Below, piece by piece: positions 24,186 to 63,085 of a stretch of 64,000 nucleotides of DNA. The DNA lies in assembly GCA_044892525.1 (NCBI GenBank), contig CM097885.1, positions 27,592,001-27,656,000 of the forward strand. Direction: 5' to 3'. The notes under the pieces were generated by a model that did no database searches, had not been told where the DNA came from, and saw nothing but the letters and a program-made list of their open reading frames with translations. Position 1 is the stretch's first letter. Every line of letters starts with the position of its first letter. A program made the position numbers and the translations under genes. The stretch is from Schmidtea polychroa. Lineage: Eukaryota.

Positions 24186-25114
24186 ACAAAATTGTGTGAT
24201 TATAAATCTTGAAGTTTAATTAATGTTTAATGCTTGCCAAAATTTTTAATTAATTTTTGAATATGTGCTTTTTGACTGCTAGCAGTGTGCTATATAGAGT
24301 GTATATATTGAGCGTTGTATAATTGTTATGGATTGCATAAACTCTATCTTTGATGTAGTTTCGTGGCCTAAAGTCCAATATCGTGAGGTCTAGAGATCTT
24401 GGTGGCTATTAATTTGGTCCTATGGAAAATGTTGATCAAACCATTGTCGTGCTGGAATACTGAGATGAGCCGGATAGGTCTACATTTCTAAGTTTCTCAA
24501 TTTACTCCAACTCATGACATTTTTTGTAGCTCCTGTATCGAACAAGTATTTCATCTTCTGGTCTTGTATTCTAATAGTTACACTTGATCGGCCTTGCATT
24601 TTATCATAACTAATAATTCATCTTATGTGAGTATTTGTATTTTTTTTCTCTTTCTCTGCAAAATCCTTTTTTATGAATCTGTTTATTTTCCTTATCACAT
24701 TATTATCCTCTTTCGTTACCTTTACACTTTTCACATCTTTCTCTATAATACATGATATTATACTTTTATTATAATTAATAATTTGGGAGTCAGCATCGAT
24801 GTTTAATACACTGCCCGACTATCGGGGCGTTGATTTCTGGGTATTATCTTCTATTCTTTCAACAATTGGTTCGTATATACATACTACGTATCTCTTGTCT
24901 GCCTGTCTTGTCTCCGTTTTTGTTCCTTGATAACCATTCCTCCATGATTATTCTTAGTTATTTTATAATTAAATCTAACGATGTTTTTTCGTCTTTTCTA
25001 TGTAGGTCAAGGTAGAGGTGTCCGATTCTGAATCAAAAGTCTTCCTCCACAATTTTTTAATAATTTGAAAATAATAATATAAAAATAATTATAAAAAAAA
25101 AAATAATAATATTG

Positions 25115-25171
<57 letters not shown>

Positions 25172-26405
25172 TCTTTACCAATTATAATAATATATCATTA
25201 GAGAGATCTTACACTAGAGTTTAAGATGAGCTATCGATGGGAACACTAACTATTTTACTAATATTTTTTTATACATTGTGTAATAATATGTTAAAGTTTT
25301 AGAAGTACCTTTGCGAGCAGTACATTAGTAACATTTACCTTTGTGAGCAGTACCCATAGGGGAACAGATAATGCAAAGTATATGCAATAATTTTATTTTG
25401 TCAACTTAACCGTCAAAATAAGTTCTTAAAATATATTTAAATTTTAAAATACCGCAACGTAATATATTTAAAAGGTATGATGAGTCATGTGTCTTTGTTC
25501 AAATGTCTTTGTTTAAATTTTTTCATTTGTTATGCAATGTCTTTGTTACGTAATATTAAAAAATTAAAATTTTTTTTTAAGAATTAAAAAAAACCACCCC
25601 CTCCCCGGTGGTAGGGGTATGACGTAATCTCCTTTATAACATCATCGATTACGTAATAGTTCTTTGTTCCCGGGTCCATACATTACCCTACTAAAGTAAT
25701 ACATCTATACTCAAATTGATTCACTGATTGCTCAAAAAATTCAAAAAATTCAGTATAAATTCATTTAAAATTATCAATGTCATCAATCTACACTTAAAAT
25801 AATTATCATTAAATTCCAAAAGAGAATGATAACTATTGATAACATATAATAAACCAGTAAATTCTTTTAAATGACAATAATTGGTATTTCCAAGCGAATT
25901 CTCTAATAAAATCATCTAAAAAGCATCAAATTTCCCTGAAAGATCTCTGTCTTTAATGATTAATATTTTATCGATAAATACCCTTAAAATGTTATATATT
26001 TCACTCAGACTAATAAGATTCCTTAAATCCCTTTAAATGACTATATTTCTACCCTTAATTCCTATTATCACAAATATTTCACTAAAATCTAAAATTAATT
26101 TGGTCATTATGTCTAAATAATTTATAAAATCTATTGATAAAACCAGTTATAATTAAATTTTTATTCTAAATGTAAATCACTGTACTTGAATTTTAAAATA
26201 AATATCACTGTACAACTCCCACTGTACAAGGTCCCATTGAAAAATTAAATTTATCCATTCAATAAAATATACTTCTTCAAATGGTTATATTTTACCGATA
26301 TTCAACCGATTTAATTACTAATTTAAATTACCCAATAAATTTCTTCCAATAAAGATCAATTTTCTTTAGTGGTTTTTGATGTTTAAGTATAACTATATTT
26401 GCAAA

Positions 26406-27378
26406 ATGATTTGTGGTAAATTCGAATTATGTATATTTGATCAAACATCACCCAAAGCGGTAAATGAATTTGGGGCATTTGAGGAAGTTTTTCATATGAA
26501 TTCAATTATCGATAGTAGAAATGATATCGAGTTTTATATTAATGGTTCGCAAACTGAATATTTAGATTTGAACGATACTTTATTGACTGTTCAGATCAAG
26601 TTTGTAGATAAAGATAGAAAAGTTTTGGATGTCAATGCAGATGTATTACCAAACAATTTCCTGTTTCATATTCTTTTTAAAGATGCAGTGTTGGGATTTA
26701 ATAATATCAAGATTGAGGGTGGAAATAATGCATTCATTCACAAAGCTTTAATAGAAACTATTTTAAATTACAATTCTGATACTAAAAATACATGTCTTAC
26801 TCCTATGGGTTATGTGGCAAAAGATGATGAAAGAAAAAAATTTGTTAAAGGCTCAAAGCTTTTCACCATGTGCTCATCATTACAACTCGATTTTGTGGAT
26901 CAACCAAAATATTTACTAGCAGGAGTTAATGTACACATTAGAGATTCTACATTATCTCTTACTAGTACAGGTGCACCAATATGTCAATTAGTTGATGCAA
27001 AATTATTAGTGAGAAGATTTCGAGTGGACCCATCAGTATTAGCTGGGCATCAATTAGTTTTAATTCAAAACATGCAATTTAGATATTAGAAACAAAGGAA
27101 ATTGTACAATTTGCTATTGCTAAAGGTGCTTTATCATTCTACAAAGAACAAATATTTGGTGTTAGAAGAATGCCAAATTTTATTCTGATAACATTTCAAA
27201 GTGAAACACAATATAATGGATCATATACTGCTTTCAGCTGAATTTTCAAAAACTTTGGTGTTACATCATTGACTTTGTCAAAAAGTACTGATTATAGAGA
27301 AACATATACTCAGGATTTCGACATTAATAATTACTGTGATACATATATGCAGAGTATTGTTAGAAACTATGATAAATA
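26406..27378 (+). pseudogene. Maverick/Polinton major capsid protein (double jelly-roll, F54H12.2-like family), frameshifted and truncated
   Basis: Contains ELCIFDQ, IEFYINGSQTEYLDLNDTLLTVQIK, NFLFHILFKD, KALIETILNY..TK, DFVDQPKYLLAGVNVHI and AKLLVRRFRVDPSVLAGH. After a frameshift it continues as GALSFYKEQIFG..MPNFILITF..YNGSY. All match the motif series I recognise for this family. Confidence 0.88.
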
Positions 27379-27409
27379 ACTGTAATTCGGCAAAACAATC
27401 TGGAAGCGA

Positions 27410-27625
27410 TGGGACCAGGAAAAATCGGACATAGGCCTTCTATCAGCATTCCGTGAACTCAAGTGAGTACTGGACAATTATAGTATTGCCGGTACTCAAA
27501 CCCTTGGTACAGTACCAACGTTGATCACTCAACGGGTATCAAGCGGTCGACCTGTAATTGTATTCTGGGTTACACTGGAAACAACACGACAGGGTAGAAT
27601 GTTTGATTACCTGTAACACACCAGT
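27410..27625 (+). repeat. Copy of the unclassified dispersed repeat of about 250 bp, at the break point of the capsid pseudogene
   Basis: Core nearly identical to 38280-38460. Confidence 0.8.
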
Positions 27626-28932
27626 GTGACCTTCGAACTCACCATCAAAAGTCCTTTTGAATGATATATAACTTGTAAGGTTTGAAAAACATTTAAGCTT
27701 GAACACCCTTTGAAGGTTATTGACCCACCATAAACTTTTGAGATTATGACCATCATACTTAGGTCCCAAATACCTGTGAAATGATGTATATATTATAAGG
27801 TTTGAAAAATTCGAAGGTTTTTTACCATTTGAAGGTTAAGGACACACCATACACCTTCGAAGGTATGACTATCATACCTACCTCCCAAGTACCTTAGAAT
27901 TATAAATATATTATAAGGTTTGTAAACATTTGAAGGTTATTGATGCACCATACACCTTCGACGAGATGACAATTTAATAGATCTCTTCAAGACCTTTCGA
28001 ATGATACCCTTGGTTGAAGGTCTGACCTTATTTGTCCTTTGGAAATTCAAATATAAAAATATGATGAGTGATGCCGATGAGTCATCATAGGATGAGTCAT
28101 ACAGATGAGTTATATAAAATATTTAAAAAAAATAAAAAATAGAATATATATAGGGGGTGATGAGTCATATGTCTTTGTTCCGTAAAGTGATGAGTGATGA
28201 GTCTTTGTTCCTGGCTCCTCATCCTACCATACTATTGCCAGATAACACACAAACTCACACGGATTGCCCGATAACACACAACCTTCTACTTCATGTCAAC
28301 CAAAAGTCGAGTAAAAAGTTCCAGTGGGCGTACAGCACAGTTTTATAAATTCATTATATTTGATAATATATCGTTAAATAAATCATCAATTCTGCTAAAT
28401 TATTTTCCTGAATAAATAAATATTCAAAAGATTAATTAAACATAAAAAAATTAATTTTTTTACAGGTATTAAATATGTATAATAACTATTTTAAAAAATG
28501 TTAATTGCAACAAGAAATTTACAAAACAATTTTAATGACCTGACCCTGAATCAAAAGCACAGTGAAACTATTACATGTTTACTCTGCGAGAGTTTGAAAA
28601 GGTAAAGTTTAGTACCCGACACGACAACGCCTGACAAGGGTTTCACGTATGCACTGTACGTAATTCGCGAGGTAAAATATTTTTGTATCACCCCCTTTAC
28701 ATAACTGTATTTTCAAGAAAATTACAATAACCTCATAAATTCAAATTAAATAAATAATATTAATGTAAATGATCAAATGTACTACATATTGTTTTAAAAT
28801 GAATGCATTTGTTTAGAATAAACATTATAATATGATTATTATGAAAATTAGAGTAGCTTAATGAATATTTCAATTACGTGGCTAATAATCTAAGCATGTC
28901 CATGCGATACCGTATTGGATAATAAATTTTTA

Positions 28933-38280: not shown

Positions 38281-38460
38281 TGGACAATTATGGTATGACG
38301 AGCATGCTCACTTTTTGCCGGTACTCAAACCCTTGGTACAGTATCAATGTTGATCACTCAACGGGTATCAAGCGGTCGACATGTAATTGTATTCTGGGTT
38401 ACGCTGGAAACATCACGACAGGGTAGAATATTTGATTCATCAAAACGTATATTTGACTTG
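38280..38460 (+). repeat. Copy of the unclassified dispersed repeat, truncating the piggyBac fragment
   Basis: Matches 27470-27610 and 62910-63070. Confidence 0.8.
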
Positions 38461-40285
38461 CAAATGCGCAGATTGACTGCTCAGCCTTCGATTATTCAAA
38501 CGATGTGTGTGCAATTTTCTCTATATAGTGATTCACACTGTCAATATGCAGAGCTCCATAAGCACTGTTGTGCGTTTGTGCGATTTTGTTATGAAATTTA
38601 ATTATATTATATTACCGAGCTAAATCTTTTGGTTTTCTTTGATTTTTTATACTTAAATATTGAAAATAGACGAATATAAGAAATTTTAGAAAAATTTAAT
38701 AAATATCAATAAAGTTATCAGTAATTGGAATTCAAATAGAGACTCACAGGCTCTGTTGTGTTTTAGGGTTAATAAAGTGTTTGATATAAAATAATTGGTA
38801 AACAAAATCTCCAAGTTTTTCAGATGAGGTGGCAGCAGTAGGGGTACACAGATCCCGACAAACCACGGGCCAACCCCCTACCCCTGCTAAGGATTTTTGC
38901 TTTTTCCTAAAAAACAGGATTTTTATGTAGGTCAATCCAAATTTATGATTTTTAAAGATTTTTTATAAAAAATTATGTAGAACAATACCAATTTATTTAA
39001 TTTTTCAAATCGACTTTTAAATCATATTTTATATAGTTTAATTAATATTTAGGTCTCACACACACTATATAGTTTTAGGGTAGAAAAAATGGTCTGTATG
39101 AAATGGGCAATAAATAATGGATATCTCATTAACGTTTAACCTCGCTAAAAACAAACGGGGATAGAGGCCTATATTGGCTTGCTAATATGAAGCTGAACCA
39201 ATGTGTAGAATACAGTATATTAAGGCCTATTTTAGTTCTCAGACTTTTTGGATATGTTGGGTATTGTCGGTGAAATTAGAAATGAATAACTATCAATCTG
39301 ATTCCAAGCGTGTCTTAAAATATCAACAAGAACGACAACTTATCTATATTACCAATATTTATTGTTTATCACAATCACAATCGATTTGACATCAGTAGAG
39401 AGAAGTGTGCTCCATGACTCATCGTTTTTTGTCATTTTTTTGCACTACCCCCCCCGATGACTCAGCGCAAAACAAAGACATATGACTCATCGATGACTCA
39501 TCCATAGCAACAGCGGTAACTGGGTCAAGGTTATATGACTCATCCATAGCAACCGTGGTAACCACGGTAACTAGGTCAAGGTCATTCTATTTTTAGTAAC
39601 TAGGTCAAGGTCATTCTATTTTTAGTAACAATGTCACGTGACGTCATCGATGACTCATCAAGGTCGTCCTATTTTTAGTAACAAGGTCACATGACGTCAT
39701 CGATGACTCACCAAGGTCATTCTATTTTTAGTAACTAGGTCAAGGTCATTCTATTTTTAGTAACAAGGTCATATGACTCATAATTTTTGAAACAAAGCCA
39801 ACTGACTCATTGTTAAAGTACATATGACTCATCATTTTTTTAAACAAAGACATATTTAATATTTAAACAAAGACATTAAAACAAATATTTAAATAAATAC
39901 ATTTAAACAAAAATTTAAATAAATACATTTAAACAAATTTTGAAATAAATACATTTAAACAAAAATTTAAATAAATACATTTAAACAAATATTTAAATAA
40001 ATACATTTAAACAAATATTTAAACAAAGACATTTAATCAAATATTTAAACAATGACATGTAAACAAATATTTAAATAAATACATTTAAACAAATATTTAA
40101 ACAAAGACATTTAATCAAATATTTAAACAATGACATGTAAACAAATATTTAAATAAATACATTTAAACAAAGACATATAGACAAAGACTCATCGATGACT
40201 CATCGAGGTCAGTGTCGTGTTTTAAGGTCAAGGTCATATTTAAATTTCCAAAGGTCAAATAAGGCCAAACCTTCACACAAGGGTA

Positions 40286-40871
40286 TCATTCGAAAGGTAT
40301 TTGAGAGGTAAATATGATGGTCAAACCCTCGAAGGTGAATGGTGGGTCCTTGGCCTTCAAAGGGTACAAAACCTTCGAATTTTTTCAAACTATAATATAT
40401 TTATCAAACAAAAGGTAATACAAAGGTAAATATGATGGTCATACCCTCGAAGGTGAATGGTGGGTCCTCGATCTTCAAAGGGTAAAAAACCTACGAATTT
40501 TTTCAAACTTTATAATATATATATATCATTCGAAAGGTATTTGAGAGGTAAATATGATGGTCATACCCTCGAAGGTGAATGGTGGGTCCTTGGCCTTCAA
40601 AGGGTACAAAACCTTCGAATTTTTTCAAACTATAATATATTTATCAAACAAAAGGTAATACAAAGGTAAATATGATGGTCATACCCTCGAAGGTGAATGG
40701 TGGGTCCTCGATCTTCAAAGGGTAAAAAACCTACGAATTTTTTCAAACTTTATAATATATATATATCAGTCGAAAGGTATTTGAGAGGTCTATCTAATGG
40801 TCATATCCTCGAAGGTGTATGGTTGGTCAATAACCTTTAAAGGGTTAAAAACCTTCGAATTTTTTCAAACT

Positions 40872-40907
<36 letters not shown>

Positions 40908-41128
40908 TCGAAAGGTATTTGAGAGGTAAGTATGATGGTCATACCCTCGAAGGTGTATGGTTGGTCAATAACCTTCAAAGGGTCAAAAACCTTCGAATTT
41001 TTTCAAACTTTATAATATATATATCAGTCGAAAGGTATTTGAGAGGTCTATCTAATGGCTATACCCTCGAAGGTATATGGTGGGTCAATAACTTCAAAGG
41101 GTGTCCAAAATTAAATATTTTTCAAATC

Positions 41129-41177
<49 letters not shown>

Positions 41178-42240
41178 TTCAAAAGGACTTTTGATGGTGA
41201 GTTCAAAGGTCCAAGGGTCGAAGGGTCCAAGGTTCAAAAATTTTAAAACCTTATAATATACATATCAAACAAAAGGTATTTGAGATGTAAGTATCATGGT
41301 CATACTTTCAAAGGTTTATGAATGGTCCTGAACCTTCAAACCTTCAAAGGGTCCAAAACCTTTAAAAATTATACATATAGATATATACATGTCAAATAAA
41401 AGGTAATACAAAGGTGAGTATGATGGTCATACCCTCAAAGGTCATACCACCGAAAGGGTCCAAGGTTCAAAAATTTTAAAACCTTATAATATACATCAAA
41501 CAAAGGTATTTGAGATGTAAGTATCATGGTCATACTTTCAAAGGTTTATGAATGGTCCTGAACCTTCAAACCTTCAAAGGGTCCAAAACCTTTAAAAATT
41601 ATACATATAGATATATACATGTCAAATAAAAGGTAATACAAAGGTGAGTATGATGGTCATACCCTCAAAGGTCATACCACCGAAAGGGTCCAAGGTTCAA
41701 AAGTTTTAAAACCTTATAATATACATATCAAACAAAAGGTATTTGAGATGTAAGTATCATGGTCATACTTTCAAAGGTTTATGAATGGTCCTGAACCTTC
41801 AAACCTTCAAAGGGTCCAAAACCTTTAAAAATTATACATATAGATATATACATGACAAATAAAAGGTAATACAAAGGTGAGTATGATGGTCATACCCTCA
41901 AAGGTCATACCACCGAAAGGGTCCAAGGTTCAAAATTTTTAAAACCTTATAATATACATCAAACAAAAGGTATTTGAGATGTAAGTATCATGGTCATACT
42001 TTCAAAGGTTTATGAATGGTCCTGAACCTTCAAACCTTCAAAGGGTCCAAAACCTTTAAAAATTATACATATAGATATATACATGTCAAATAAAAGGTAA
42101 TACAAAGGTGAGTATGATGGTCATACCCTCAAAGGTCATACCACCGAAAGGGTCCAAGGTTCAAAAGTTTTAAAACCTTATAATATACATATCAAACAAA
42201 AGGTATTTGAGATGTAAGTATCATGGTCCAAGTTTGAAGG
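40286..42240 (+). repeat. Satellite arrays in the left TIR: about 120-bp units (partly as 240-bp dimers), then about 232-bp units
   Basis: AAAGGTA motifs at about 40292, 40411, 40532, 40651, 40772, 40910 and 41029. CCAAGGTTCAAAA at about 41227, 41460, 41690, 41923 and 42154. Confidence 0.95.
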
Positions 42241-42898
42241 TCAAAGAGTCTAAGGATCCAAGGTTTAAATTTTTCAAACCTTGTAATATACATATCAAAC
42301 AAACGGCAATACAAAAGTACTCATCGATGACTCATTTATTTTTTGAACAAAGACAATGACGCGCCCATGGGATTTATTATTTATTACTATCATTAGTATT
42401 ATTATTATTTATTATTATTAATTTCAATATTATTTATTATTATCAATAGTATTATTATTATTTTCGAAGATATTATCAAAATTTATTATTAATATTATTA
42501 TTATCATCAAGTTTTAATTATCAAGGTAATTTAAACAAAGACTCAGCCGCTGAGTCACCAAGGTCGTTCTATTTTTAGTAACAAAGACATCTATTTTTGT
42601 TCCGGCGGTTTATTTTTGTTTTAATAATCGATTACGTAATAATTTAATTTTGTTTAAATCGTTGATTATATTATTTTTTTTGTCGTTCTATTTTTTGTCG
42701 TTCTATTTTTAGTAACAAAGACATCTATCAAACAAACGGCAATACAAAAGTACTCATCAATGACTCATTTATTTTTTGAACAAAGACAATGACGCGCCCA
42801 TGGGATTTATTATTATTAATATCAAAATTATTATTATTATCAATATTATTTATTATTATCAATAGTATTATTATTATTTTTATTATTATTAATATTAA

Positions 42899-42977
<79 letters not shown>

Positions 42978-43214
42978 ATTATATTCATGTCTTTGTTAAT
43001 CATGCACGTTTATTGCAAAGTCTTTGTTAATTATGCAAGTGTATTGCAAATTTATTAGTCATACCTTGATATTAATTTTACACACATACTCAATCCATTA
43101 TTATTATTGCAAGTATTAGAGAAAAACCTAAAATATTTCCACAGACACAAGTCTATTCGAAAGTATACATGCTAGGATTACACACCTTAAGGGTAGAAAA
43201 ATATTTCTGAGTGA

Positions 43215-44350
43215 TTGTGTGTGCAATAGCCAAAAATAATAAATTTTATCAAATACATGTAAATTTTTTTAAAAAATCTATGTGTGTGTTATTGGTAGAG
43301 TGTGAGTGTGTAAAATATGAAATTTTATTAAATACATGTATAAATTTAGGTAAATTTTAAGAAAAATCTATGTTTTTTTGTGTTTGTGTGTTACGGGTAT
43401 AGTATGTGTGTGCGTAAATATGAAATTTTATCAAATACATGTAAATTTAGTTAAATTTTATGAAAAATCTATGTTTATTGTCTGTGTGTGTTATGGGTAG
43501 AGTATGTGTGTGTGTAAAAATTTTATCAAATACATGTAAATTTCTTTAAAAAATCTATATGTGTGTTTGTCCTATGGGGTAGAGAATTTATGAAAAATCT
43601 ATATATGTGTGTGTTATGGGGTAGAGTATGTATGTGTAAAAAACTTTTATCAAATACATGTAGATTTCTTTAAAAAATCTATGTGTGTGTGCTATGGGGT
43701 AGAGTATGTGTGTGTGTAAAACTTTTATCAAATACATGTAAATTTCTTTCAAAAATCTATGTTTTCTGTGTGTGCTATGGTTAGAGAATTATTATGGGTG
43801 TATGTGTGTAAAAATATTAAATTTTATCAAATACATGTAAATTTCTTTCAAAAATCTATGTTTTCTGTGTGTGCTATGGTTAGAGAATTATTATGGGTGT
43901 ATGTGTGTACAAATAATAAATGTTATAAAAATCATGTAAATTTCTTTAAAAATCTATGTTTTCTGTGTGTGTGTGTGGTATGGGTAATTATTATGGGTGT
44001 GTAAAAAACTTTTATCAAATACATGTAAATTTCTTTAAAAAATCTATGTGTGTGCTATGGTTAGAGAATTATTATATGTGTATTTGTGTACAAATAATAA
44101 ATTTTATAAAAATCATGTAAATTTCTGTAAAAAATCTATGTTTTCTGTGTGTGTGTGCTATGGGGTAGAGTATGTGTGTGTAAAAAACTTTTATCAAATA
44201 CATGTAAATTTCTTTCAAAAATCTATGTTTTCTGTGTGTGTATGTGTGTGTGCTATGGGGTAGAGAATTATTGTGTGTGTATGTGTGTAAAAATATGAAA
44301 TTTTATCCAATTTCTTTAAAATTTATGAAAAATCTATGTTTTTGTGTGAA
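43215..44350 (+). repeat. Minisatellite of about 70-85 bp inside element A
   Basis: TTTTATCAAATACATGTAAATTTCTTTAAAAAATCTATG-(TG)n-CTATGGGGTAGAG is repeated more than ten times. Confidence 0.92.
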
Positions 44351-44494
44351 TTATACATGTATTGCACATGCTTATTTTAACACGGGTATATATGCTTAAT
44401 ATGTGATTATACTCTGAGTTTATCCGACAAGATATTTTGTCCCCCTATGGGTAATGTTCACACTCAACATGTTGCAAGTGTACTGCTCACAAGG

Positions 44495-44548
<54 letters not shown>

Positions 44549-44834
44549 TCAGAGTTTATCCGACAAGATATTTAGTCCCCGGATGGATAATGCTCATATA
44601 CAACATGTCTCAAAGGGCATATTATTAAATTCTGACTAATCAATGAAGGGGTAGAACAAAAATATATTACTTTTGTGGTATGTTAAAATCTTATTTTCAA
44701 AACATATTTTGACGCCATTTTCATTAGATGCAAGAACATTTTCATAATTATTTTCATAATTTTTGCATCGATTTCATGATTTTCAACATTTTCATCATTT
44801 GCATGAATATATTATTTTCAAAGTTATTTTCAAT

Positions 44835-44914
<80 letters not shown>

Positions 44915-45010
44915 TCGATGGGTTTTATATAGGGTATCCGAATGTTGTAATAAGCAATATTTTTATTGTTTTTCATGATTATTTTCTTCAAAATTCTTAT
45001 TTTATAAAGT

Positions 45011-45100
45011 ATGACTCATTCAAGGTCATATGACTCATCAAGGTCACGTGACTCATCGATTACATTTTGAAAATTCTAATTTGATTGGTTATATCTATTG
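45011..45100 (+). promoter_or_regulatory. Putative promoter of the RING cargo gene: three TGACTCA (AP-1 type) sites alternating with two TCAAGGTCA sites, then an inverted CCAAT box
   Basis: ATGACTCATTCAAGGTCATATGACTCATCAAGGTCACGTGACTCATCG at 45011-45058, ATTGG at about 45084, ATG at 45139. Confidence 0.6.
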
Positions 45101-45138
45101 TGATAAATGTAAAAACAAAAGTAATTTAGTTATTACTG

Positions 45139-45777
45139 ATGATTTCTACAAGTAAAACTGTTGAATATGATTGTGTAAATCACAAAATGTATTTGGTAAC
45201 TTTATTATTTTATCAATTTTTTTGTGATTTATAGCAAGGAACTCGAAATAATGAAAGATTAAGTCTATCCTATTCTGAAGATAATCGCTCATTGAAATTT
45301 TTTAACATAGTTGAAGATTTTATAAATAATCATGATGCTTACACTGATAAGAAAATCATAAATGTTTTAAAAATTTTCAAACATTCCTCTATTGAATATT
45401 TGATTGATTTATTTAATTATGATAAATGTATTTTGAAGTTTAGTTATTTAATGTATTTTGAAAAAACAGTGGTAAACAACGATACACTAAATGAATACTT
45501 TTGGAGTTGCATGTATTTAAGATTGAAACCGGGATATAGTAGATTGATTTATGAATGGATGGCGAAAGTCGATTTGATTGAAAATAAACTAACGGAAAAA
45601 CTGAACGATGTTAAGAAAATGTATTTAACTTGTTCAATCTGTAAAGAAAATCAAGTTTCGGTTTTGTTTTTACCGTGTGGTCATGTAATTGTTTGTTCTA
45701 AGTGTCACGAGAAGAATGTTCGCAATTGTCAAGCCTGTTCAACTTTGATTAATGAATATCATACTATATATATATAA
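45139..45777 (+). CDS. Spliced 199-aa protein with C-terminal IAP/MDM2-type RING finger (putative E3 ligase), cargo of element A
   Basis: Exon 1 45139-45195, a 39-nt GT-AG intron 45196-45234 ending in an in-frame TAG, and exon 2 45235-45777, open throughout. It ends CSICKENQVSVLFLPCGHVIVCSKCHEKNVRNCQACSTLINEYHTIYI. No BIR motif is visible. Confidence 0.85.
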
Positions 45778-46822
45778 TTTCTCAATACAAATTTCTAGTG
45801 TCTTTTTTTGAATCATGCACATTTATTGCTATTTTGTATATTTTTTAGTTAATTTATAAATATTATCTGACATTTTGATGTGTCAATGCAAATATATATA
45901 CAACAAATTAATCAATAAAGATTGTAAGTTCTTTTATATACTCAGAGTTTATCCGACAAGATATTTTGTCCCCCTATGGGTATTTGTCGTAAAGTTACTG
46001 GTCGCTAGGGTAATTAAGGCACATGTATATATATAAATTCTTAGGTAATTTAGTGAGAAATATTTGGGTAATATTTGAAATGTAACTTTATTCTTATTTC
46101 GAACGATTAATTTATTGATTAACTTTGTCATTTAAAAGGTAATTTAGTAAAATATTTTCATAGGTAATTTATTCATCTAATGTTCATTACAATAGTTAAC
46201 TTCGTGAGAAATACATGGTCATTAATAACAACATTGATTTTTTGGAGTAAAAATCTTTGTTCGAGTCATAATAGAAATATGATCATCTGGTTAACCAATT
46301 AAGGTGTTTATTAGTTAGAATTCTAATTTATTATCATTGTAATATATCTTTGTGAGAATAAGTTAAGATTTTTGAGCAACATTTACCAAAACATGAATAT
46401 TTTGTGCGAAGAATATTGGTTAAATATGTCATTTAAAATAATATTTTCAGACAATAATTAATAAATTCATTGGTTAATTTATATCTTTGTGAGAAATACA
46501 TGATCATTTATTGACAATTCATTAATAAATTTGGTATAAATTCTTTATCATTTGGAGTAATTTTTGTCAAATTTCTATTTTTTATTATTATAGAAACATG
46601 ATCGTTTGGTTAATTTACATGGAGTAATATGATGAATTTCAAGTGAAATAAAGTTTTCAGTTAATTAATATATCAAATTAATTTAAAATTGAGGATACAC
46701 TGATGAAAATTCTAAACAAATATTTGCATCCACACATATATTTGAACATCACATAATAAAAACTCATTAATTTAAAATATTGCAACGTAAAATACTGCGT
46801 AATAAATGATACTGAATCGCTC

Positions 46823-46892
<70 letters not shown>

Positions 46893-47286
46893 TGAAAAAT
46901 AATAATATGACATTGATATTAATAATAATATTAAATTAATACTTTGAAAATAAAATAAGAATTTTGAAGAAAATAATCATGAAAATATTGAAAATCGTAA
47001 AAATATCTTTTGGAAATAATATTAATAATAATAATACTTTGAAAATAATAATACTATGGACTTGTATTTGAAAATAATATACATTTAGCGACCAATACCC
47101 ATAGAGGGACAAAATATCTTGTCGGATAAACTCAGACTATATGTATAGCACTAGCAATAATAATAATGGATTGAGTATGTGTGTAAAATTAATATCAAGG
47201 TATGACTAATAAATTTGCAATACACTTGCATAATTAACAAAGACTTTGCAATAAACGTGCATGATTAACAAAGACATGAATATAAT

Positions 47287-47343
<57 letters not shown>

Positions 47344-47599
47344 TATAATAATAATAATAATATTAATAATAATAATATTAATAATAATAATAATAATAAT
47401 ATTAATAATAATAAAAATAATAATAATACTATTGATAATAATAAATAATATTGATAATAATAATAATTTTGATATTAATAATAATAAATCCCATGGGCGC
47501 GTCATTCTGAAAACAGATGTCTTTGTTTTAAAAAGTGATGAGTCATTGTCTTTGTTATAAAAAGTCAGCGATGACTACCTTTGTAGTACCTTTTGTTTG

Positions 47600-49075
47600 A
47601 TATGTATATTATAAGGTTTGAAAAATTTGACCCTTGGACCATCATACTCATCTTTGTATTACCTTTTGTTTGATATGTATATTATAAGGTTTTAAAACTT
47701 TTGAACCTTGGACCCTTTCGGTGGTATGACCTTTGAGGGTATGACCATCATACTCACCTTTGTATTACCTTTTATTTGACATGTATATATCTATATGTAT
47801 AATTTTTAAAGGTTTTGGACCCTTTGAAGGTTTGAAGGTTCAGGACCATTCATAAACCTTTGAAAGTATGACCATGATACTTACATCTCAAATACCTTTG
47901 TTTGATGTATATTATAAGGTTTTAAAATTTTTGAACCTTGGACCCTTTCGGTGGTATGACCTTTGAGGGTATGACCATCATACTCACCTTTGTATTACCT
48001 TTTATTTGACATGTATATATCTATATGTATAATTTTTAAAGGTTTTGGACCCTTTGAAGGTTTGAAGGTTCAGGACCATTCATAAACCTTTGAAAGTATG
48101 ACCATGATACTTACATCTCAAATACCTTTTGTTTGATATGTATATTATAAGGTTTTAAAATTTTTGAACCTTGGACCCTTCGACCCTTGGACCTTTGAAC
48201 TCACCATCAAAAGTCCTTTTGAATGATATATATATATATTATATGATTTGAAAAATATTTAATTTTGGACACCCTTTGAAGTTATTGACCCACCATATAC
48301 CTTCGAGGGTATAGCCATTAGATAGACCTCTCAAATACCTTTCGACTGATATATATATTATAAAGTTTGAAAAAATTCGAAGGTTTTTGACCCTTTGAAG
48401 GTTATTGACCAACCATACACCTTCGAGGGTATGACCATCATACTTACCTCTCAAATACCTTTCGACTGATATATATATATATATTATAAAGTTTGAAAAA
48501 ATTCGAAGGTTTTTAACCCTTTAAAGGTTATTGACCAACCATACACCTTCGAGGATATGACCATTAGATAGACCTCTCAAATACCTTTCGACTGATATAT
48601 ATATATTATAAAGTTTGAAAAAATTCGTAGGTTTTTTACCCTTTGAAGATCGAGGACCCACCATTCACCTTCGAGGGTATGACCATCATATTTACCTTTG
48701 TATTACCTTTTGTTTGATAAATATATTATATTTTGAAAAAATTCGAAGGTTTTGTACCCTTTGAAGGCCAAGGACCCACCATTCACCTTCGAGGGTTTGA
48801 CCATCATATTTACCTCTCAAATACCTTTCGAATGATATATATATATTATAAAGTTTGAAAAAATTCGTAGGTTTTTTACCCTTTGAAGATCGAGGACCCA
48901 CCATTCACCTTCGAGGGTATGACCATCATATTTACCTTTGTATTACCTTTTGTTTGATAAATATATTATAGTTTGAAAAAATTCGAAGGTTTTGTACCCT
49001 TTGAAGGCCAAGGACCCACCATTCACCTTCGAGGGTATGACCATCATATTTACCTCTCAAATACCTTTCGAATGA
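47600..49075 (-). repeat. Satellite arrays in the right TIR (mirror of 40286-42240 with fewer 232-bp units)
   Basis: TTTTGAACCTTGG at about 47700, 47930 and 48161; 120-bp units at 48240-49075. Confidence 0.95.
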
Positions 49076-52000
49076 TACCCTTGTGTGAAGGTTTGGCCTT
49101 ATTTGACCTTTGGAAATTTAAATATGACCTTGACCTTAAAACACGACACTGACCTCGATGAGTCATCGATGAGTCTTTGTCTATATGTCTTTGTTTAAAT
49201 GTATTTATTTAAATATTTGTTTACATTTCATTGTTTAAATATTTGATTAAATGTCTTTGTTTAAATATTTGTTTAAATGTATTTATTTAAATATTTGTTT
49301 ACATGTCATTGTTTAAATATTTGATTAAATGTCTTTGTTTAAATATTTGTTTAAATGTATTTATTTAAATATTTGTTTAAATGTATTTATTTAAATTTTT
49401 GTTTAAATGTATTTATTTAAAAATTTGTTTAAATGTATTTATTTAAATTTTTGTTTAAATGTATTTATTTAAATATTTGTTTAAATGTATTTATTTAAAT
49501 ATTAAATATGTCTTTGTTTAAAAAATGATGAGTCATACATACTTTAATAATGAGTCAGTTGGCTTTGTTCCAAAAATGATGAGTCATATGACCTTGTTAC
49601 TAAAAATAGAATGACCTTGACCTAGTTACTAAAAATAGAATGACCTTGATGAGTCATCGATGACGTCACGTGACATTGTTACTAAAAATAGAATGACCTT
49701 GACCTAGTTACTAAAAATAGAATGACCTTGACCTAGTTACCGTGGTTACCACGGTTGCTATGGATGAGTCATATAACCTTGACCCAGTTACCGCTGTTGC
49801 TATGGATGAGTCATCGATGAGTCATATGTCTTTGTTTTGCGCTGAGTCATCGGGGGGGGGTAGTGCAAAAAAATGACAAAAAACGATGAGTCATGGAGCA
49901 CACTTCTCTCTACTGACATCTGCTAATACAATTCCACGAAGGATTCACCACTCAAGACTCTAAACTCTGAACTTATTAAAACTGACAGTGGGTAATAGTC
50001 CAATCAATAACTGCCAAACTACATGTTTAATCGAACTCTCTTGATATATTTATACCACTCAACAGGTTCCTTTAACTTTTCTTTGCTTTCGGTTTCCGTA
50101 ACATTGTTTCGCCAAATGTCTGCTTATTTTTTCGTAGAGTTTCTTCACTCTATTTTTTTTCATCTTACAACTTCTGTTTTCGTTTTTTATTATCGCCTTT
50201 TTCAGTTTTGCATGGCTCATAAGTAGATGGTAGTGTGCCCGCAAGACCACATACCCCCCCCCCCCCCCGGCCGGAAATTTTTTTTTAAATAAAAGGTCAA
50301 GGTCATTTTATTTTCAAGGTCATATTTTAAAATTTAAATTTACAGAGTTCCCGCCAACGGGATTTAGTGAATATTCAAGTGAATTACTATAATTTTTGTG
50401 AATTTCATGTTAATTGAAAGAATATTTAAAAATTTAAGGTTTTATTGTTAATTCTAAGACAAATTTAATTAATTTCTTGATAATTTGCTATATTTTATTG
50501 ACTTGTTTTTTAAATAAAAATTATTTTTTATGATAGTTAGGTTAATAATTAGAGTTTTTACAATAATCAAGTGATAGGATAAATTATTTAATTTTTATGA
50601 TGACTTTGTAATGATAATTTGATTAAATAATTTTTTCATATATTTTCTAAGAATATTTCCATTTACGCATTGATGAACTTTTAAATATTGAAAATCTAAA
50701 GTTGAAACCAGCTAATTTATCATGAATTTTATTTGAAATCTACTTGAAAATTATTGTAAAATATACTGAAATTTGTGATTTAGTTTGGAAGATGTATCAT
50801 GTTATAATTGCTATAATTGGCTGAATCGATGAAGAATTATGATCAAACAATGAGAAATTATCATCCCTAGTTAGATATTTGATGGTAAATGTGGTGAAAT
50901 ATTTGTAGAAAATATTGATTTTAATGAATTTGATCTTTTAGTGGGCTCTTACTACATGAATTTATGTACTAAATTATTTCAATTGAAAAATGTTTGGTAT
51001 CTGTAACAATTAAATAAAATTCATATTTTGAAGAATTTTCTATGGATTTTAAAAGAATTGATCTATTAACGGGCTCAAGTGGGTGAAATTAAGGGATATA
51101 GCCGGTTGGATTTAGTAAGGGTTTGGTTAAGATGGGAATATATGATTTTTAAGGAATATATTCGGTCGGATGTTTAAAGGGGTAGAAATATTTGGTGAGG
51201 GATCGGTTAAGGTGGAAATGTTTTGAATATCTCTATTTAAATCGACAATTTTCTTAATGGTAAAATATCAATGTTTCAAGAGAAATAGTCAGTATTTAGC
51301 TATGAGTCAATAATAGTTCCTGTGAAATTATATCGTTTTAGGTTTATTAGGTTGTAATGAATGTAATTGCATAGTAATTTAGATTTATGTTTTACTTTAG
51401 AACCAGTTTCTATTAATTATCCACGGTTTTATTAAGTCGTTTAGGGTTAATGATCAATTAGGTGTTTATTTACTTGGTTTTGACAATGAAATATCTGAAA
51501 TCTTTAGAATTAATTGGGAATGATATCAAAGGTTATTGCTTTAAATTATTTACCTTTAATTAATATGTTATAGACGGATATTCATTGTGGGGATATCGGT
51601 GACAAAACTTGAGAAATATTGACTTAAAAGAGTTGGACATCGACAGCAAATAAAGAAAATTGAACATTATTGAAGGAAATTTATGATTTTAATTAGAAAT
51701 TAAATCGGTTGAATATCAGCTAAGGGTAAAATATGGTCATTTGAAGGAATATTGTTATCGGGTGGATAAATCTTTCAATGATATTTTGCTAAATTACCTT
51801 TTGCTAAATATTATTTTAAATGACAAAGTTAACCAATAAATTAGTCGATCGAAATAAGAATTCGGTAAAAGTTACATTTAAAATATTCCAATTATTCACG
51901 AATTTCTGATAAAGATATATATGAACATCTATTTCTCACTAAATTACCTAGGAATTTCTAACTGATATACATGTACCTTAATTTAATAATTAGTATACCC

Positions 52001-52611
52001 TTGCAACATGTTGAATGTGACCAGTACCCTTGCTAGCAATACCCTTAGGGGGACAAAATATCTTGTCGGATAAACTCGGAGTATAAGAACTTGCAATATT
52101 GATACATCAAAATACTGTTATTTAAAAAATTAACTAAAAATACTCAAAAATACTATTATCTAAGAATTCATTTACTGAATGATATCTTAAAATTTAAGAC
52201 TTAAATGATCTTGCTTTTAATATACATATGAATTGATTTCTAAAATAATCATGTTTTTCTATCAAACATGCATAAATTGAATATAAATTTGCTGAATGTG
52301 AAATAAACATGTTTCTTGCTAAAGAATTTACTAATTAATATCTCCGAATGATATTTCGCTGAAAGGTATATAAAATCTCTATGAATTTGTTAAATGTTTT
52401 CCTCAATATAAATTGTTAATTAGTTCCTAAAATAGTCACAGAATTGTCCTAAGAATATATCATCACCATTTGGTAGTTGCGCCCAATATATTTAATTACC
52501 AAGATTATTTCATATTATTCAATGTTTGAAAATTTTCTACATTATAGTACCGTCATTATGTATGGTAATAATTCATTTGACTTTGATATTGTATTGATTT
52601 ATATTGAGAAC

Positions 52612-52814
52612 TTACATGTATATAGTATGATATTCATTAATCAGTGTTGAACAGGCTTGACAATTGTGAACATTCTTCTCGTGACACTTAGAACAAACAA
52701 TTACGTGACCACACGGTAAATACAAAACCGAAACTTGATTTTCTTTACAAATTGAACAAGTTAAATACCTTTTCTTAACATCGTTCAGTTTTTCCGTTAG
52801 CTTATTTTCAATCA
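52612..52814 (-). pseudogene. 5'-truncated second copy of the RING cargo gene, in element B
   Basis: Reads IENKLTEKLNDVKKRYLTCSICKENQVSVLYLPCGHVIVCSKCHEKNVHNCQACSTLINEYHTIYM*, about 10 substitutions from 45575-45777. Confidence 0.92.
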
Positions 52815-54389
52815 GTGTAAAATTTTTATGAAATAATTTTCCAAGTCAAAATTAAATACAAATTTATATTAAATTAATTTCAAAGACAGATTTCAATTAA
52901 CCACTACTAATAAAAATAATAGTAAATGAAAAGGGTAAATTTTAAAACTAACTAATAAATTTAGAAAGAGAATGAGAATTGATAGTAATAATTAAATTAA
53001 AGTAAATTATGGACATAAATTTTTAATTAAAGTAATAATTTTTAATCTATTATAAAAAAGTTTGAATGATAGTCAGGTTTTGAGAAATGAAAATTTTAAT
53101 GAAATAGTTTTTAAAGAAAATTTAGATGCAAATTTTACAAATAATAATAATGATAATAATGATAATAAAATAATATTAATAAAAATAATAATAAAAATAA
53201 TACTTTATATTGCTAAGCATTAATAATGTAATTATATTTGAATATTTTTTATTCATGTATAACAATTAATTAAAACAAATATAAATAATATTAATAGATT
53301 AAATTAATTAAAATGGAATTGAGAAATGATGCAGTATATCAAATTATTGATCCAAGGGCTGTGGGAAAACATTATTTGTTTATAAATTATTACAATCAAA
53401 TATGTTTAAGTCAAAATTTAAAAGGTCAACCAGATACTTACAATAAAATACTTACAACAATGTATTTCTAACAAGCAGCTAGATACCAAATACTTTCAAC
53501 ATGATACCACGTACTAACTAACTCTCAAACAACCAGATACATACAACTAACTACTTACAATCAACTAAATATTCTTCATTGTATTTTATGAAATGCTTTT
53601 TAAATTAATTTTTTATCTGTCTTCAAAATATGTTTAATTACAATCAGTAGAAAAACCTTTTCAAAATGTCTAAATTTAACAAAAATGATGATTTTCATCA
53701 AAAAATGAATAATTGTCAACTCATCACTACGTGGGATTGATGATAATTTAAATTAAAATGAAAGACTATAGAATTCTAATTTACAAAACATTCTTCTTTT
53801 AATTGATTACTACTGACTTATTATTGCAATGTAAAAATCGCATTCAATAAATACTTATTGTTGATCAGTTTTATTATATATACTCTGAGTTTATCCGACA
53901 GGATGTTTTGACCCCCTAAGGGTACTGGTCGTAAGGGTATTGCTAACACTCAACTCCCACCTACCCATTTACTAGATACTAGATACCAACAACCAACTAA
54001 CAACTAGATACTAAGTACTTACAACCGACAAAAACCAAGTACTAAGCATTATCAACATACAACTATATAACAACAATCAGTAAACATTGTATAGATCATG
54101 TTGTTGAAAATGTTATGAACTGTGGAGATGATGAATGTGAATGTGGTAATAAATTTTAGTGTATATTTAAAGTATAATATTTAGAATTTCTTTGTTAAAG
54201 TTTTGTCTTGAATATTTTTACCAGTAACTTTGTAAACAATACCCATGTGACTTGTCGAGTGTGAGCAGTACCCTGGTGATCAGTACCCTTGTGAGCAGTA
54301 CCCATAGGGGGACAAAATATTTTGTCGGATAGACTAGGAGTATATATATTAATACTAATAATAATGAAAATAATTATGTTGATAATATA

Positions 54390-55400
54390 TGGCTCAATCG
54401 AAAGGTCTTAGATTGGGCTTTAAAATGAGCTATCGTGGAACAGTTTTCGTTGACGGGAACTCTGTAAATTTAAATTTTAAAATATGAAAAAACGAATGAC
54501 CTTGAAAAAATAAATGACCTTGAAAAAATAAATGACCTTGAAAAAATAAATGACCTTGAAAATATAAATATATAAAAAAAAATTATTAATCGGGAAAACG
54601 TTAATAATTTTGCCAATAATAATGATAATAATAATATTTATATATCAGTAGATAGATCTTGCACTGGGCTTTAAAATGAGCTATCGATCGATGAAATAAA
54701 ACGATGAGAACGATAACGTTTGGGCAAACGAAAACCATGTGCCCGCAAGACCACTTAATAATTATATGACCTTGAAAATGATTTTTGGTAAAATGTTATT
54801 AACTTTGTTATATTATTGATGATGATGATACCTTCAATAGCTCATTCGAAAGGTCTTGGATCGGGCTTTACAATGAGCTGTCATTGAATAATTTTTGTTG
54901 GCGGGAACTCTGTAAATTAAAATATGACCTTGAAAAAACAAATGGCCTTGAAAAATAAATGACCTTGAATAAATAAATGACCTTGAAAAAAATGACCTTG
55001 AAAAAAAAATGACCTTGAAAAAATAATATTTTGAAAAAATAAATGACCTTGAAAATAGTCTCGGAAAAACGGTAATAATCTTTCCAATAATAATGATAAT
55101 AATAATATTTATATATCAGTAGATAGATCTTGCACTGGGCTTTAAAATGAGCTATCGATCGATGAAATAAAACGATGCGAACGATAACGTTTGGGCAAAC
55201 GAAAACCATGTGCCCGCAAGACCACTTAATAATTATATGACCTTGAAAATGATTTTTTGTAAAATGTTAATAACTTTGTCAATATTATTGATGATGATAC
55301 CTTCCATGGCTCATTCGAAAGGTCTTGGATTGGGCTTTAAAATGAACTATCGATGAATAATTTCCGTTAGCGGGAACTCGACCTTGAAAAAAAAATGACC
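54390..55400. repeat. Subterminal tandem repeats of about 450-470 bp in element B, with runs of ATGACCTTGAAAAA
   Basis: TCGAAAGGTCTT.GAT.GGGCTTTA at about 54398, 54847 and 55316. Internal copies of the terminal motif GTGCCCGCAAGACCAC lie at about 54739 and 55210. Confidence 0.9.
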
Positions 55401-55491
55401 TTGACCTTTTATTTAAAAAAAAATTTTCCGGCCGGGGGGGGGGTATGTTGTCTTGCGGGCACATGGTTTTGCGGGCACACTACCATCTACT

Positions 55492-55581
55492 CTCATAACC
55501 TATCACAGCTGCAACAACGCCGCCATTAATTTGATTAAGTAAAGTTGAAAGAACAAGCAATGCAATGAATATTCGTATCAT
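55492..55581 (-). pseudogene. Tandem paralogue of the small Cys-rich gene, interrupted by element B
   Basis: Reads MIRIFIALLVLSTLLNQINGGVVAAVIGYE, and continues left of element B as PCKTE (50215-50201), versus YGACQTV in the intact copy. Upstream 55582-55667 also matches 56805-56890. Confidence 0.88.
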
Positions 55582-56495
55582 AATTTGACAATGAAATAAA
55601 CGTCCAAACAAACATATTAAAAAAATCACCTTGTTTGGAATTCCAAATATAGAAATAGAACGGATATAAAATTTACAAAACTAATTTTCAAAGTCTACAA
55701 TGAAGCAAATAAAATTGGCATCATTCTATCAAAATATTTTCGGCTCTACTCAACAACATTTGCTATAATTTCGTAAAAACTCAATAAGTTGACCAACGTA
55801 TTTTACAAAAATTTTCTAAGTATTTTGAGTTGGCTTACATATTTATTTGATATGCTGTTGTTCACTGTCTCCTCATTTGTTAAGGAATAAGATTTTAATT
55901 CTATAATATGAGTTAATATTTTTGATAATATGTGAAAGTTATTATATTATGGCATTTGATGATAATGTTATTCACTGTCTCCCCACGTATTAAAGGAATA
56001 GATTATAATTCTATAATTATGGAATGACCTACATTTTAATTTAGAGACTTTGGCACTCGTTTCCAATGAAAGCATGCTTTTTTTTCCTATATACACACCA
56101 TATATTTTCGTGACCTAGATAAAATTCTGATTTGACCTAGATATTTTCTAGAGGAGAGGTTGATCCAGCAGTGATACTACATATGATATTATTGTCGATG
56201 AATTGGAAAAAATGATTTCATTCAAGCAATGATTGATAAGACCCGTCAAATCACTAGATATATACACATCATAATAATAATTATGACTATGGATATATTC
56301 TACAAGGAAATGTTACATTTTCGTAATAAGTTTTGGGAAAGCTTATTACGGATTGTAACAAAAACGAGTAAGTCAAAATATATTTATGAAAACTTATGCA
56401 AGAACAATATTATAAATCTTTTTTTTGTCAAATATGGGAATTTTTGTTTCGAGATAATAGTTCAAAATTTATAATCGTCTTTTCGAAATTATAGT

Positions 56496-56804
56496 TTAAA
56501 CAGGAGCTACAACACATGCAGTTGCACAAGCTGCCATGCAAGCTCCTTGGGCAGCTGAACAGGCTATCACTGCTGGAAGTGCTCCAGCTCCAGCAGTAAG
56601 AGCTCCTATAAAATATAAAATAGGAACATTGTATTAATAACTATTCTCACCTGCTGTCAGTCCCAATGATGCTAAACATGCGACATATCCGGCATTGCAG
56701 ACAGTTTGGCATGCCCCATAACCTAGCACAATTCCTACGAGGCCGCCATTAATTTGATTAAGTAAAGTTGTAAGAACAAGCAATACAGTGAATATTCGTA
56801 TCAT
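56496..56804 (-). CDS. Small secreted Cys/Ala/Gly-rich protein (87 aa), 2 exons
   Basis: Exon 1 56804-56651, a 45-nt GT-AG intron, and exon 2 56605-56496 give MIRIFTVLLVLTTLLNQINGGLVGIVLGYGACQTVCNAGYVACLASLGLTAGALTAGAGALPAVIACSAAQGACMAACATACVVAPV*. Confidence 0.9.
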
Positions 56805-57060
56805 AATTTGACAATGAAATAAACGCTCAAACAAACATTTAAATATTCACCTGGTTTGGAATTCCAAATATAAAAATAGAACGGATATGAATTATATTAA
56901 ACTAACAGACAAGAACAGACATACCACTGTAAATTATATCATCATTTCTAGTGAAATAAAAAAATAAAGTGATCAGTGCACTATTCCAAAATATTATTGC
57001 TATTATTTTACTGGATTTCTCTAAGTTTATAATACGCGAATTTCATTGGCTGAATTTATG

Positions 57061-58849: not shown

Positions 58850-60400
58850 AATTTCATAAAAATGTGAATTATACTTATAGATTTAATTTCTTCAAAATAT
58901 AAATTATGATTAGTTATAAAGGTATAAATTATAAATTTAATTTCTTGAAATTATAAATTACAAATTTGTATTGACGATAAAAATTATAAATTATAACTCT
59001 AAGTTAATTATAAAAGTATAAATTATAATCTTAACTTCATAAAAATATAAATTATAAAATTATATTAGCTTTGGAAATATAAACTATAAATTGAACTTCA
59101 CCAAATATAAATTATAAACTTAAAAGTATAAATTATAAAATTATATGGGCTCTAAAATATAAACTATAAATTTAACTTCATAAAAATATAAATTATAAAA
59201 TTATATTAGCTTTAAAATATAAACTATAAATTTAACTTAACTTCATAAAATATAAATTATAAACTTAAAAGTATAAATTATAAAATTATATTAGCTTTAG
59301 AAATATAAACTATAAATTTAACTTCATAAAAATATAAATTATAAAATTATATTAGCTTTAAAATATAAACTATAAATTTAACTTAACTTCATAAAATATA
59401 AATTATAAACTTAAAAGTATAAATTATAAAATTATATTAGCTTTAGAAATATAAACTATAAATTTAACTTCATAAAAATATAAATTATAAATTTATATTA
59501 GCTGAAAGACTATAAATTATAATCTTAATTTGGTCATAAAAGTATAAAATATAAACTACGTTAGCGATAAAAATATAATCTATAATAAGTTGTAAATATT
59601 TTATAAATACCCCCCCCCCCCAAGTTACGTAATGGTCGAAACAAATGTCCAGATTCATAATCTAACTTATATACGTATATTTGAAACTTATAAAGTATAA
59701 TTTACATTTTTTAATGAGTACCGTCATCAAACTGTACATTTGTCGAGAACAATATATATAGTAATAAATTAACTTATATATCAAATTTTAAAGATATAAT
59801 TCATAGATTGTCATAAATAACCCCTCAGAGCAAATAACCATTAATTATTATCTAAATGCATTAATTTAGACTATCTTATATATATATACTTAACTTAGAT
59901 TACCTTTAAAATCATAGTTGAAAATTTGTCATCAAAGACCCCCAATAAACCATATCGTCATCAACTACTACCTAAATATACTAAATTAGCTTATCATAAT
60001 ATATATTTAACTTATATTATATTTAAAAATGTAAACTGAAAATTTTTATGAATGACCCCCCTACAAACCATATAGTCATCAACTACCACATAAATATACT
60101 AAATTAGTTTATCTTAATACATATTTAACTTATATTATATTTAAAACTATAAATTGTACATTTTCAGACCATATAGTCATTAAGGATTACCCAAAAGTAC
60201 TAATTTAATTTGTTTTCAGATATGTTCAACTTATATTACCTTTAAAAATATAACTTGTATTTTTATTTAACCGACCCCCCTCAAATCATGTAGCCATTAA
60301 CTATTACGTAGGTATGCTGAATTATATTATATTCATAGACAGTTAAATTATATTTCATTTAAAAATATAAATTCATAAATTTTCGTAAATGACCCCTCCC
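58850..60400. repeat. AT-rich minisatellite (about 60-140 bp higher-order units, 58850-59600) followed by diverged units of about 120 bp (59800-60400); probably transposon subterminal repeats
   Basis: Recurrent AAATATAAACTATAAATTTAACTTCATAAAAATATAAATTATAAAATTATATTAGCTTT, then GACCCCC..AAACCATAT.GTCATCAACTAC..AAATATACTAAATTAG units. Confidence 0.8.
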
Positions 60401-62849: not shown

Positions 62850-63085
62850 AGGGACCTGCGTAAATCGGACATATATCTTCTAACGATAGTCCGTGAACCA
62901 AGTAGAGTGCTCGACAATTACAGTGCAACTAGTGCGCTCACTTTTTGCGAGCACTCACCCTCTTGATACAGTACCAACGTTGATCATTCAACGGGTATCA
63001 AGCGGTAAACAATGTTGTATCTTGGGTTACGCTGGTAACAGCACTAAAGAGCAAAATATTTGATCATCAGTAACCCACCAATATA
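62850..63085 (+). repeat. Copy of the unclassified dispersed repeat of about 250 bp
   Basis: Contains GTACCAACGTTGATCATTCAACGGGTATCAAGCGGT and flanks matching 27410-27625. Confidence 0.8.

Follow-up and report, generated by a model that had tools for sequence, protein, structure and literature searches.

A non-autonomous Maverick/Polinton derivative of probably mosaic history in Schmidtea polychroa

Introduction

The Mavericks/Polintons (Polintoviricetes) of vertebrates are described, in passages of Barreat and Katzourakis 2021 (PMC8097293), as elements of 12.7-24.6 kb that make a 6-bp target duplication and carry inverted repeats of 46-1447 bp and 6-bp end motifs starting with AG. Recombination between related elements is already known. 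Passages of the respective sources report that mosaicism is common in the Polisuviricotina, both at the genome and at the sub-gene level (Barth, Ha, Aylward 2026, bioRxiv 10.64898/2026.10.13.758929), that a polymerase was swapped in nematode Polintons (bioRxiv 10.1101/2023.08.22.554363), and that EMALE02 is a recombinant and ends were regained in EMALEs (PMC8547959). For maize Mutator elements, parts of another study describe how ends and interiors of divergent clades recombine, with matching ends regenerated later (Hunter, McCarty, Koch 2023, PMC10401008). Here we analyse a stretch of 64,000 nucleotides from Schmidtea polychroa (assembly GCA_044892525.1, contig CM097885.1, positions 27,592,001 to 27,656,000 of the forward strand; henceforth the window, in whose numbering all positions are given) that holds a 5.3-kb element, B, close to a larger element, A, and a relic, C, with a broken capsid gene. 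We conclude that B is a non-autonomous Maverick/Polinton derivative and that its ends and its interior probably have different histories.

Results

Element B occupies 50222-55491 (5270 bp), begins with AGTAGA and ends with TCTACT, and is flanked on both sides by a perfect 6-bp target-site duplication, CTCATA. Its inverted ends are about 100 bp long: set against 55491-55380, the left end is 84% identical over 112 columns and 94% identical over the ungapped ones. These borders, the duplication and the inverted ends bear out an earlier reading of the window made from its letters alone (the sequence-only reading), which had proposed a real element in this interval. B interrupts a coding exon of a small cysteine-rich gene that is present in duplicate, and both exon halves are contiguous in the paralogue, which the right flank of B matches near 56720-56890 at 89% and the left flank resumes at the adjoining position. 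The two copies of this gene, which has a hydrophobic leader, lie on the minus strand: one, at 50030-50221 plus 55492-55670, is broken by B, and the other, at 56510-56830, looks intact with one intron.

Six-frame Pfam scans of the whole of B, with stops read as X, returned a single match above cut-off, the C3HC4 RING described below, and no gene for a protein-primed DNA polymerase B or a retroviral-like integrase. ATPase and protease likewise had no Pfam match in B, and none of 150 capsid homologues matched it, results in which heavily decayed remnants could be missed; Rfam gave no match in 39000-56000. Rows for DUF4079 and Chromo_PTM in the right arm of B stayed below the Pfam threshold with no passing stretch and were discarded as noise, and a leucine-rich-repeat look that the eye picks out at 50900-51780 (+) and 26235-26400 (-) found no support in Pfam. 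B is linked to relic C by the end signature, an arm unit and a 140-bp segment, and the frame in C belongs to the double jelly-roll capsid family. With its 6-bp duplication, AG-starting inverted ends and this sequence link to a capsid-bearing relic, B is a non-autonomous Maverick/Polinton derivative.

Public contigs from four runs, one per study, extend over nearly the whole of B and include many variants. In the two runs that also cover the flanks, the summed contig depth of B is about 870 times that of the flanks, a rough sign rather than a copy count, given that one of the runs may be the source sample and that a single locus was read. As far as this sign goes, B is one copy of a large or abundant family. 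One part is thinly covered: at 52084-52471 the cover is about 10-fold or more below that of the neighbouring bins in all four runs, so this insert or spacer is probably a minority variant within the B family. A joint that skips about 110 bp at 51147-51258 also occurs in all four runs and looks like a common deletion variant of B. Joints such as 52025-54312 may reflect deletion from one motif copy to another, but their sides are only 27-30 letters long and they come from one run only.

Two segments of B have inverted counterparts in A, as the sequence-only reading had proposed. The RING region, B 52597-52814 against A 45792-45575, is 94.5% identical over 218 nt (E 1e-94), and the non-coding stretch, B 51799-52103 against A 46152-45915, is 66% identical with gaps and 91% identical over ungapped columns (E 4e-31); the extension of the latter to about 52150/45830, which the same reading had included, is weak (score 45 against a best of 43 in 300 shuffles). 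The two matches are collinear, with the same order and orientation, and form one module of RING end, spacer, motif copy and downstream repeats. This module amounts to about 570 bp of 5270 bp, or 11% of B. The claim that A and B share the same cargo is therefore overstated, since the rest of the B interior, including the left interior at 50322-51613, has no significant match in A; that left interior has none in C either. A further segment, B 51637-51771, matches relic C at 26382-26249 in inverted orientation (76%, E 2e-22). The homology to the capsid relic that had been noted here is real, and it ends before the capsid frame, which begins at 26406.

The motif within the shared module is 55-60 bp long and recurs, with four copies in A and three in B; a fuzzy search for it returned five copies and missed two known ones, so that search is not exhaustive. 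Each copy begins adjoining TATA, and in both A and B a copy at the inner edge of the right arm faces inward. Among the seven copies, A45938 and B52085 are the one pair between the elements with downstream sequence in common (score 130 against 18-32), and both their outer and their inner flanks agree, which makes them one inherited copy. The facing pair at 53879-54344 has the shape of a miniature transposon, and nothing elsewhere in the window matches its interior significantly. No related locus was confirmed for the motif among viral contigs, nor were related loci found in prokaryote genomes; the only motif match among metagenome contigs, L001, is a bacterial contig alike in 24 bases and was rejected.

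The RING piece allows the source of the module to be traced. The A frame and the B fragment both pass the curated cut-off of PF13920 (B fragment, E 2e-8), and A/B identity falls from 19/20 to 5/20 across 52814. A database protein of 163 residues, P0001, is identical to the B fragment over its residues 97-163, and the RING end of A differs from these residues at 4 of 67 places. All five members of the P0001 cluster combine sequence upstream of the RING with the residues of B at the four diagnostic places. Among the contigs, one of run X9 departs from B at 52814 and continues for about 570 other letters, while one of run X7 bridges the junction of B without differences. Judged by these residues and contigs, the B fragment comes from a gene family that has several variants, is cut on its 5' side and has a nearer source than A. 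A itself keeps the RING frame open over the whole length of P0001 despite its near-palindromic structure. For the upstream 100 residues of the full P0001-type gene, which B lacks, we identified no relative, longer or other; the RING of both A and B is of the C3HC4 type. The Atlas returned only generic RING clusters, under 0.9, no related locus was confirmed for the RING frame among viral contigs, and metagenome contigs held none for the RING piece. The stretch 53100-53318, a candidate for an inverted and decayed 5' part of the RING gene, scored 62 against 53 for the best shuffle, but 3 of 60 real controls reached 64, and it was dropped.

Over the 66 codons compared between A and B, the RING piece has six synonymous and four replacement differences (dS 0.17, dN 0.026), a pattern of purifying selection (Fisher p 0.005; interval of the synonymous fraction, 0.06-0.31). 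At codons for the same residue, 6 of 62 differ; saturation under local codon usage predicts 28, and none of 20,000 draws came out as low as observed. By this codon comparison the RING piece is young.

The ends of the elements behave differently from the interior. The five ends found, two each in A and B and one in C, all consist of AGTAGA, five free bases and GTGTG, and the three elements of the window carry three end types. Between A and B, 13 of the first 16 bases agree, followed by only 3 of 13 at positions 18-30, so that the two ends are not alignable over their length, whereas simple divergence of one end type would have left them alignable. Although mostly free of tandem arrays, the terminal 17-100 bp are unalignable in all three pairs. 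When 200 bp of the B end are set against 400 bp of the A end, the score is 48; end pairs simulated at 17% divergence with indels have a median of 137, and only 1 of 300 scores as low as observed. Contrary to what had been claimed, AGTAGA is nonetheless not all that the two elements share towards their termini: in addition to the 13 of 16 bases and the internal motif, they have in common a 50-nt subterminal stretch (score 48 against a best of 30 in 200 shuffles) and the word TGACCTTG, found 15 times in A, 15 times in B and once in the other 45 kb. Their arms share 20 12-mers against a control maximum of 8; the six common 14-mers only tie the control maximum of 6.

Relic C combines features of both elements, and its left end was not found. 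Its subterminal arrays are A-like (75-77%), which upholds part of the earlier assignment of C to the A type; its end at 28290 is a third type, agreeing with A at 12 of 16 bases and with B at 14 of 16, and a piece of the B-like right-arm unit lies at 25098-25238. The capsid frame of C belongs to a family of proteins of 410-440 residues (1034 matches), whose closest member, the full-length homologue P0002, is 53% identical and places the start of the frame at 26406. The predicted fold of P0002 (pLDDT 94.5) is a double jelly-roll like the capsids of PBCV-1, iridovirus, Sputnik and mavirus. The capsid profile matched solved sequences weakly (E 0.67) and the fold search decided the identity; on the strength of this predicted fold, the C frame is a member of the double jelly-roll capsid family. 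None of 150 capsid homologues extends below 26394 and coding starts at 26406, so the segment that B shares with C is upstream DNA and not capsid. Among viral contigs no related locus was confirmed for the capsid frame. Four database proteins (P0010, P0012, P0051 and P0116) join pieces of the capsid family to unrelated sequence and are probably gene models wrongly predicted across decayed Maverick copies in a host genome. Right after the last capsid match in C lies a dispersed repeat, 27411-27623, with copies near 18375-18515, 38280-38442 and 62851-63080, one of which is 95% identical over 123 bp.

The features of A, B and C are collected in Table 1. The arms of A exceed 3.5 kb, and a decayed remainder of their mirror symmetry extends inside the motif copies at 44545 and 47141, which share sequence downstream of the motif (score 163) and so place the motif within the arm symmetry of A. 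Elsewhere in the window we observed a glycosyl hydrolase 31 frame at 3933-5483 (-), a broken piggyBac-like transposase (DDE_Tnp_1_7) at 33062-34555 (-), hAT-like pieces at 35204-36207 (-; DUF4371 and DUF659, below cut-off) and an AT-rich array at 58886-59592 with periods of 61, 85 and 146 bp, for which the searches run showed no relation to A or B.

Table 1. Features of element B, element A and relic C in window coordinates
Feature	Position	Strand	Basis or remark
Left target-site duplication copy of B (CTCATA)	50216..50221	.	sequence
Left terminal inverted repeat of B, AGTAGA-N5-GTGTG signature at start	50222..50321	+	
B left interior, AT-rich, without Pfam domain	50322..51613	.	deep public-contig cover
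Segment common to B and relic C (26400-26235, inverted), non-capsid DNA	51614..51780	+	
Non-coding half of A/B module (A 45830-46152): one internal-motif copy and downstream degenerate repeats	51799..52150	-	
B internal motif copy 1, counterpart of A 45938	52010..52085	-	
Spacer of this B copy, against about 40 bp at this place in A	52151..52596	.	
Last 67 codons of C3HC4 RING gene, stop and about 15 bp, 5' side cut	52597..52815	-	
B-specific interior with AAT microsatellite	52816..53870	.	without significant match elsewhere in the window
Two more internal-motif copies, facing (53879 on +, 54344 on -)	53879..54344	.	466 bp overall, TATA adjoining each edge
B right arm: about 1.9 copies of a 471-bp unit holding 17-18-bp TGACCTTG arrays	54346..55379	+	
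Right terminal inverted repeat of B	55380..55491	-	
Right target-site duplication copy of B (CTCATA)	55492..55497	.	
Element A, 10.5-kb near-palindrome, arms unlike those of B	39394..49914	.	own 6-bp duplication GACATC on both sides
A RING frame, full-length match to P0001	45292..45777	+	87%
Relic C: B-like arm unit, motif tail, A-like words, B-common segment, broken capsid gene, A-like arrays, third end type	25098..28290	+	
Broken double jelly-roll major capsid gene of C	26406..27373	+	first frame stops at 27089; other-frame matches to about 27370

Discussion

How did B come to combine a young interior piece with ends that no longer align with those of its neighbour? We lean towards an origin in which Maverick genomes with different ends, replicating together, recombined or switched templates and so joined the ends and interior of B, which then lost sequence by deletion; we infer both the recombination and its direction. 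B would have kept the signals that act in cis (the 16-bp end signature, the inverted ends and the subterminal word arrays), and an autonomous Maverick elsewhere in the host would provide the polymerase and integrase that copy and insert it. Mobilisation in trans through its ends is suggested by the 6-bp duplication of an element without genes of its own for these steps. The interior of B would be a patchwork of remnants, in which the 570-bp piece (RING 3' end, motif and downstream repeats) stems from the same recent gene pool as the interior of A, with a P0001-type copy rather than A itself as the donor, while the ends would derive from an older, separately diverged lineage. Since a young shared piece (dS 0.17) stands beside unalignable ends (1 in 300 by simulation), ends and interior probably have different histories, and B a mosaic one. 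To this extent the reassortment of interiors and termini put forward by the sequence-only reading holds. Its swap between two lineages, those of A and B, does not follow, since the B piece is nearer to a third gene copy, there are three end types, the shared segments are of similar age and the capsid lies outside the sharing. What the three elements would fit is one pool of interiors of similar age with three different ends.

Common descent without exchange is a possible account too, if on the less likely side: a single Maverick radiation, some 10-20% diverged, could have left A, B and C with differing deletions, their arms and ends turning over fast as tandem arrays were amplified, homogenised and copied from end to end in replication. 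A number of observations suit it and weigh against the recombination that we favour. All segments common to A, B and C stand at 81-94% identity over ungapped columns and are thus similar in age; none is near-identical, so there is no mark of fresh exchange, and the edges of the module lie outside the motif copies, so that we found no homology-driven crossover point. The arms consist of short-unit arrays with common words (the 20 shared 12-mers), and these words together with the 50-nt stretch make the arms of A and B related; C holds A-like arrays and the B-like arm unit side by side; and truncated virophage elements have regained inverted ends, according to a passage of PMC8547959. The 94.5% nucleotide identity of the RING piece may be partly or largely the work of purifying selection, since dN is well below dS. 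The age mismatch holds at the point estimate of synonymous divergence and weakens at its upper bound of 0.31: at simulated divergences of 25% and 30%, respectively 11% and 58% of ends score as low as those observed. The base of the comparison, finally, is three elements within one window, dated in pairs. Yet turnover through tandem arrays fits poorly with terminal 17-100 bp that are mostly non-tandem and still cannot be aligned in any of the three pairs, ends decay that far in just one of the 300 simulations at the measured divergence, and in nematode Polintons, as passages of bioRxiv 10.1101/2023.08.22.554363 have it, a polymerase swap left the inverted repeats conserved.

The module might instead be an independent mobile unit nested in both families, for example a TA-targeting miniature element with the internal motif as its inverted repeat. 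The TATA that adjoins each motif start and the two copies that face each other over 466 bp in B would suit such a unit, but we consider it improbable: with B searched against the whole window, all motif matches fall within A, B or C, the unit that the motif bounds does not include the RING, A45938 and B52085 are one inherited copy, and the motif sits inside the arm symmetry of A (44545/47141). Contig depth points the same way, with RING bins at 0.95-1.12 times the B left arm and motif bins at 1.8-3.4 times, as expected from three motif copies per element; the nested transposon common outside Mavericks that the sequence-only reading had weighed is thus not seen. Hardly credible is a sharing confined to the window, by gene conversion between neighbours 7 kb apart, or produced by the assembly. 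A and B are indeed only 307 bp apart, and no listed contig spans the whole of B, but the B piece is nearer to database copies than to A, and contigs from other studies bridge the junctions of B itself (one of run X7 over 52789-52950 with no differences, one of run X9 over 52467-52793 with two), which largely refutes this explanation.

A wider reading is one that we rate as unlikely: the host might harbour non-autonomous Maverick satellites that form a network, with ends that can be exchanged as cassettes around a 16-bp core read by common helper enzymes, and with interiors from a common pool of modules joined where the 60-bp motif, facing inward, marks the inner boundary of the arms. If so, families with different ends would be one recombining population and would map, in nature, the minimal signals that Mavericks need to replicate and integrate. 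To our knowledge, these minimal signals have not been defined by experiment. The core common to the ends of A, B and C (AGTAGA, five free bases, GTGTG and short repeated words) is a candidate for the signals of integrase and polymerase, and a family named after its ends need not form a lineage.

A phrase search of the literature for non-autonomous Polintons or Mavericks returned only work on Tlr1; it covered few subscription papers and not Repbase, where such families may be described. Compared with the Mavericks/Polintons as set out in the passages of PMC8097293, B is alike in its 6-bp duplication, in inverted ends within the size range and in an AG-starting end motif, and the window holds a capsid relic with related sequence. 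It is unlike them in being 5.3 kb long and in lacking coding sequence for polymerase, integrase, ATPase, protease and capsid, and its end motif, AGTAGA, mixes the listed (AGT)2 and (AG)3 motifs and equals neither exactly. B resembles the mosaics of the Polisuviricotina, in the parts of that study that describe them, in that portions of one element would have different histories and that breakpoints can fall inside genes. Those mosaics concern replication and capsid modules of coding elements, whereas here, within the non-autonomous families of a single host, ends are contrasted with the remnant of an accessory gene. The nearest parallel for the exchange of ends and interiors, maize Mutator, is a cut-and-paste superfamily whose history is presented, in the relevant parts of its source, through whole-genome trees, whereas three elements are compared pairwise here. 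Recombination between related elements being already known, B would add to these systems a tidy case rather than a new mechanism.

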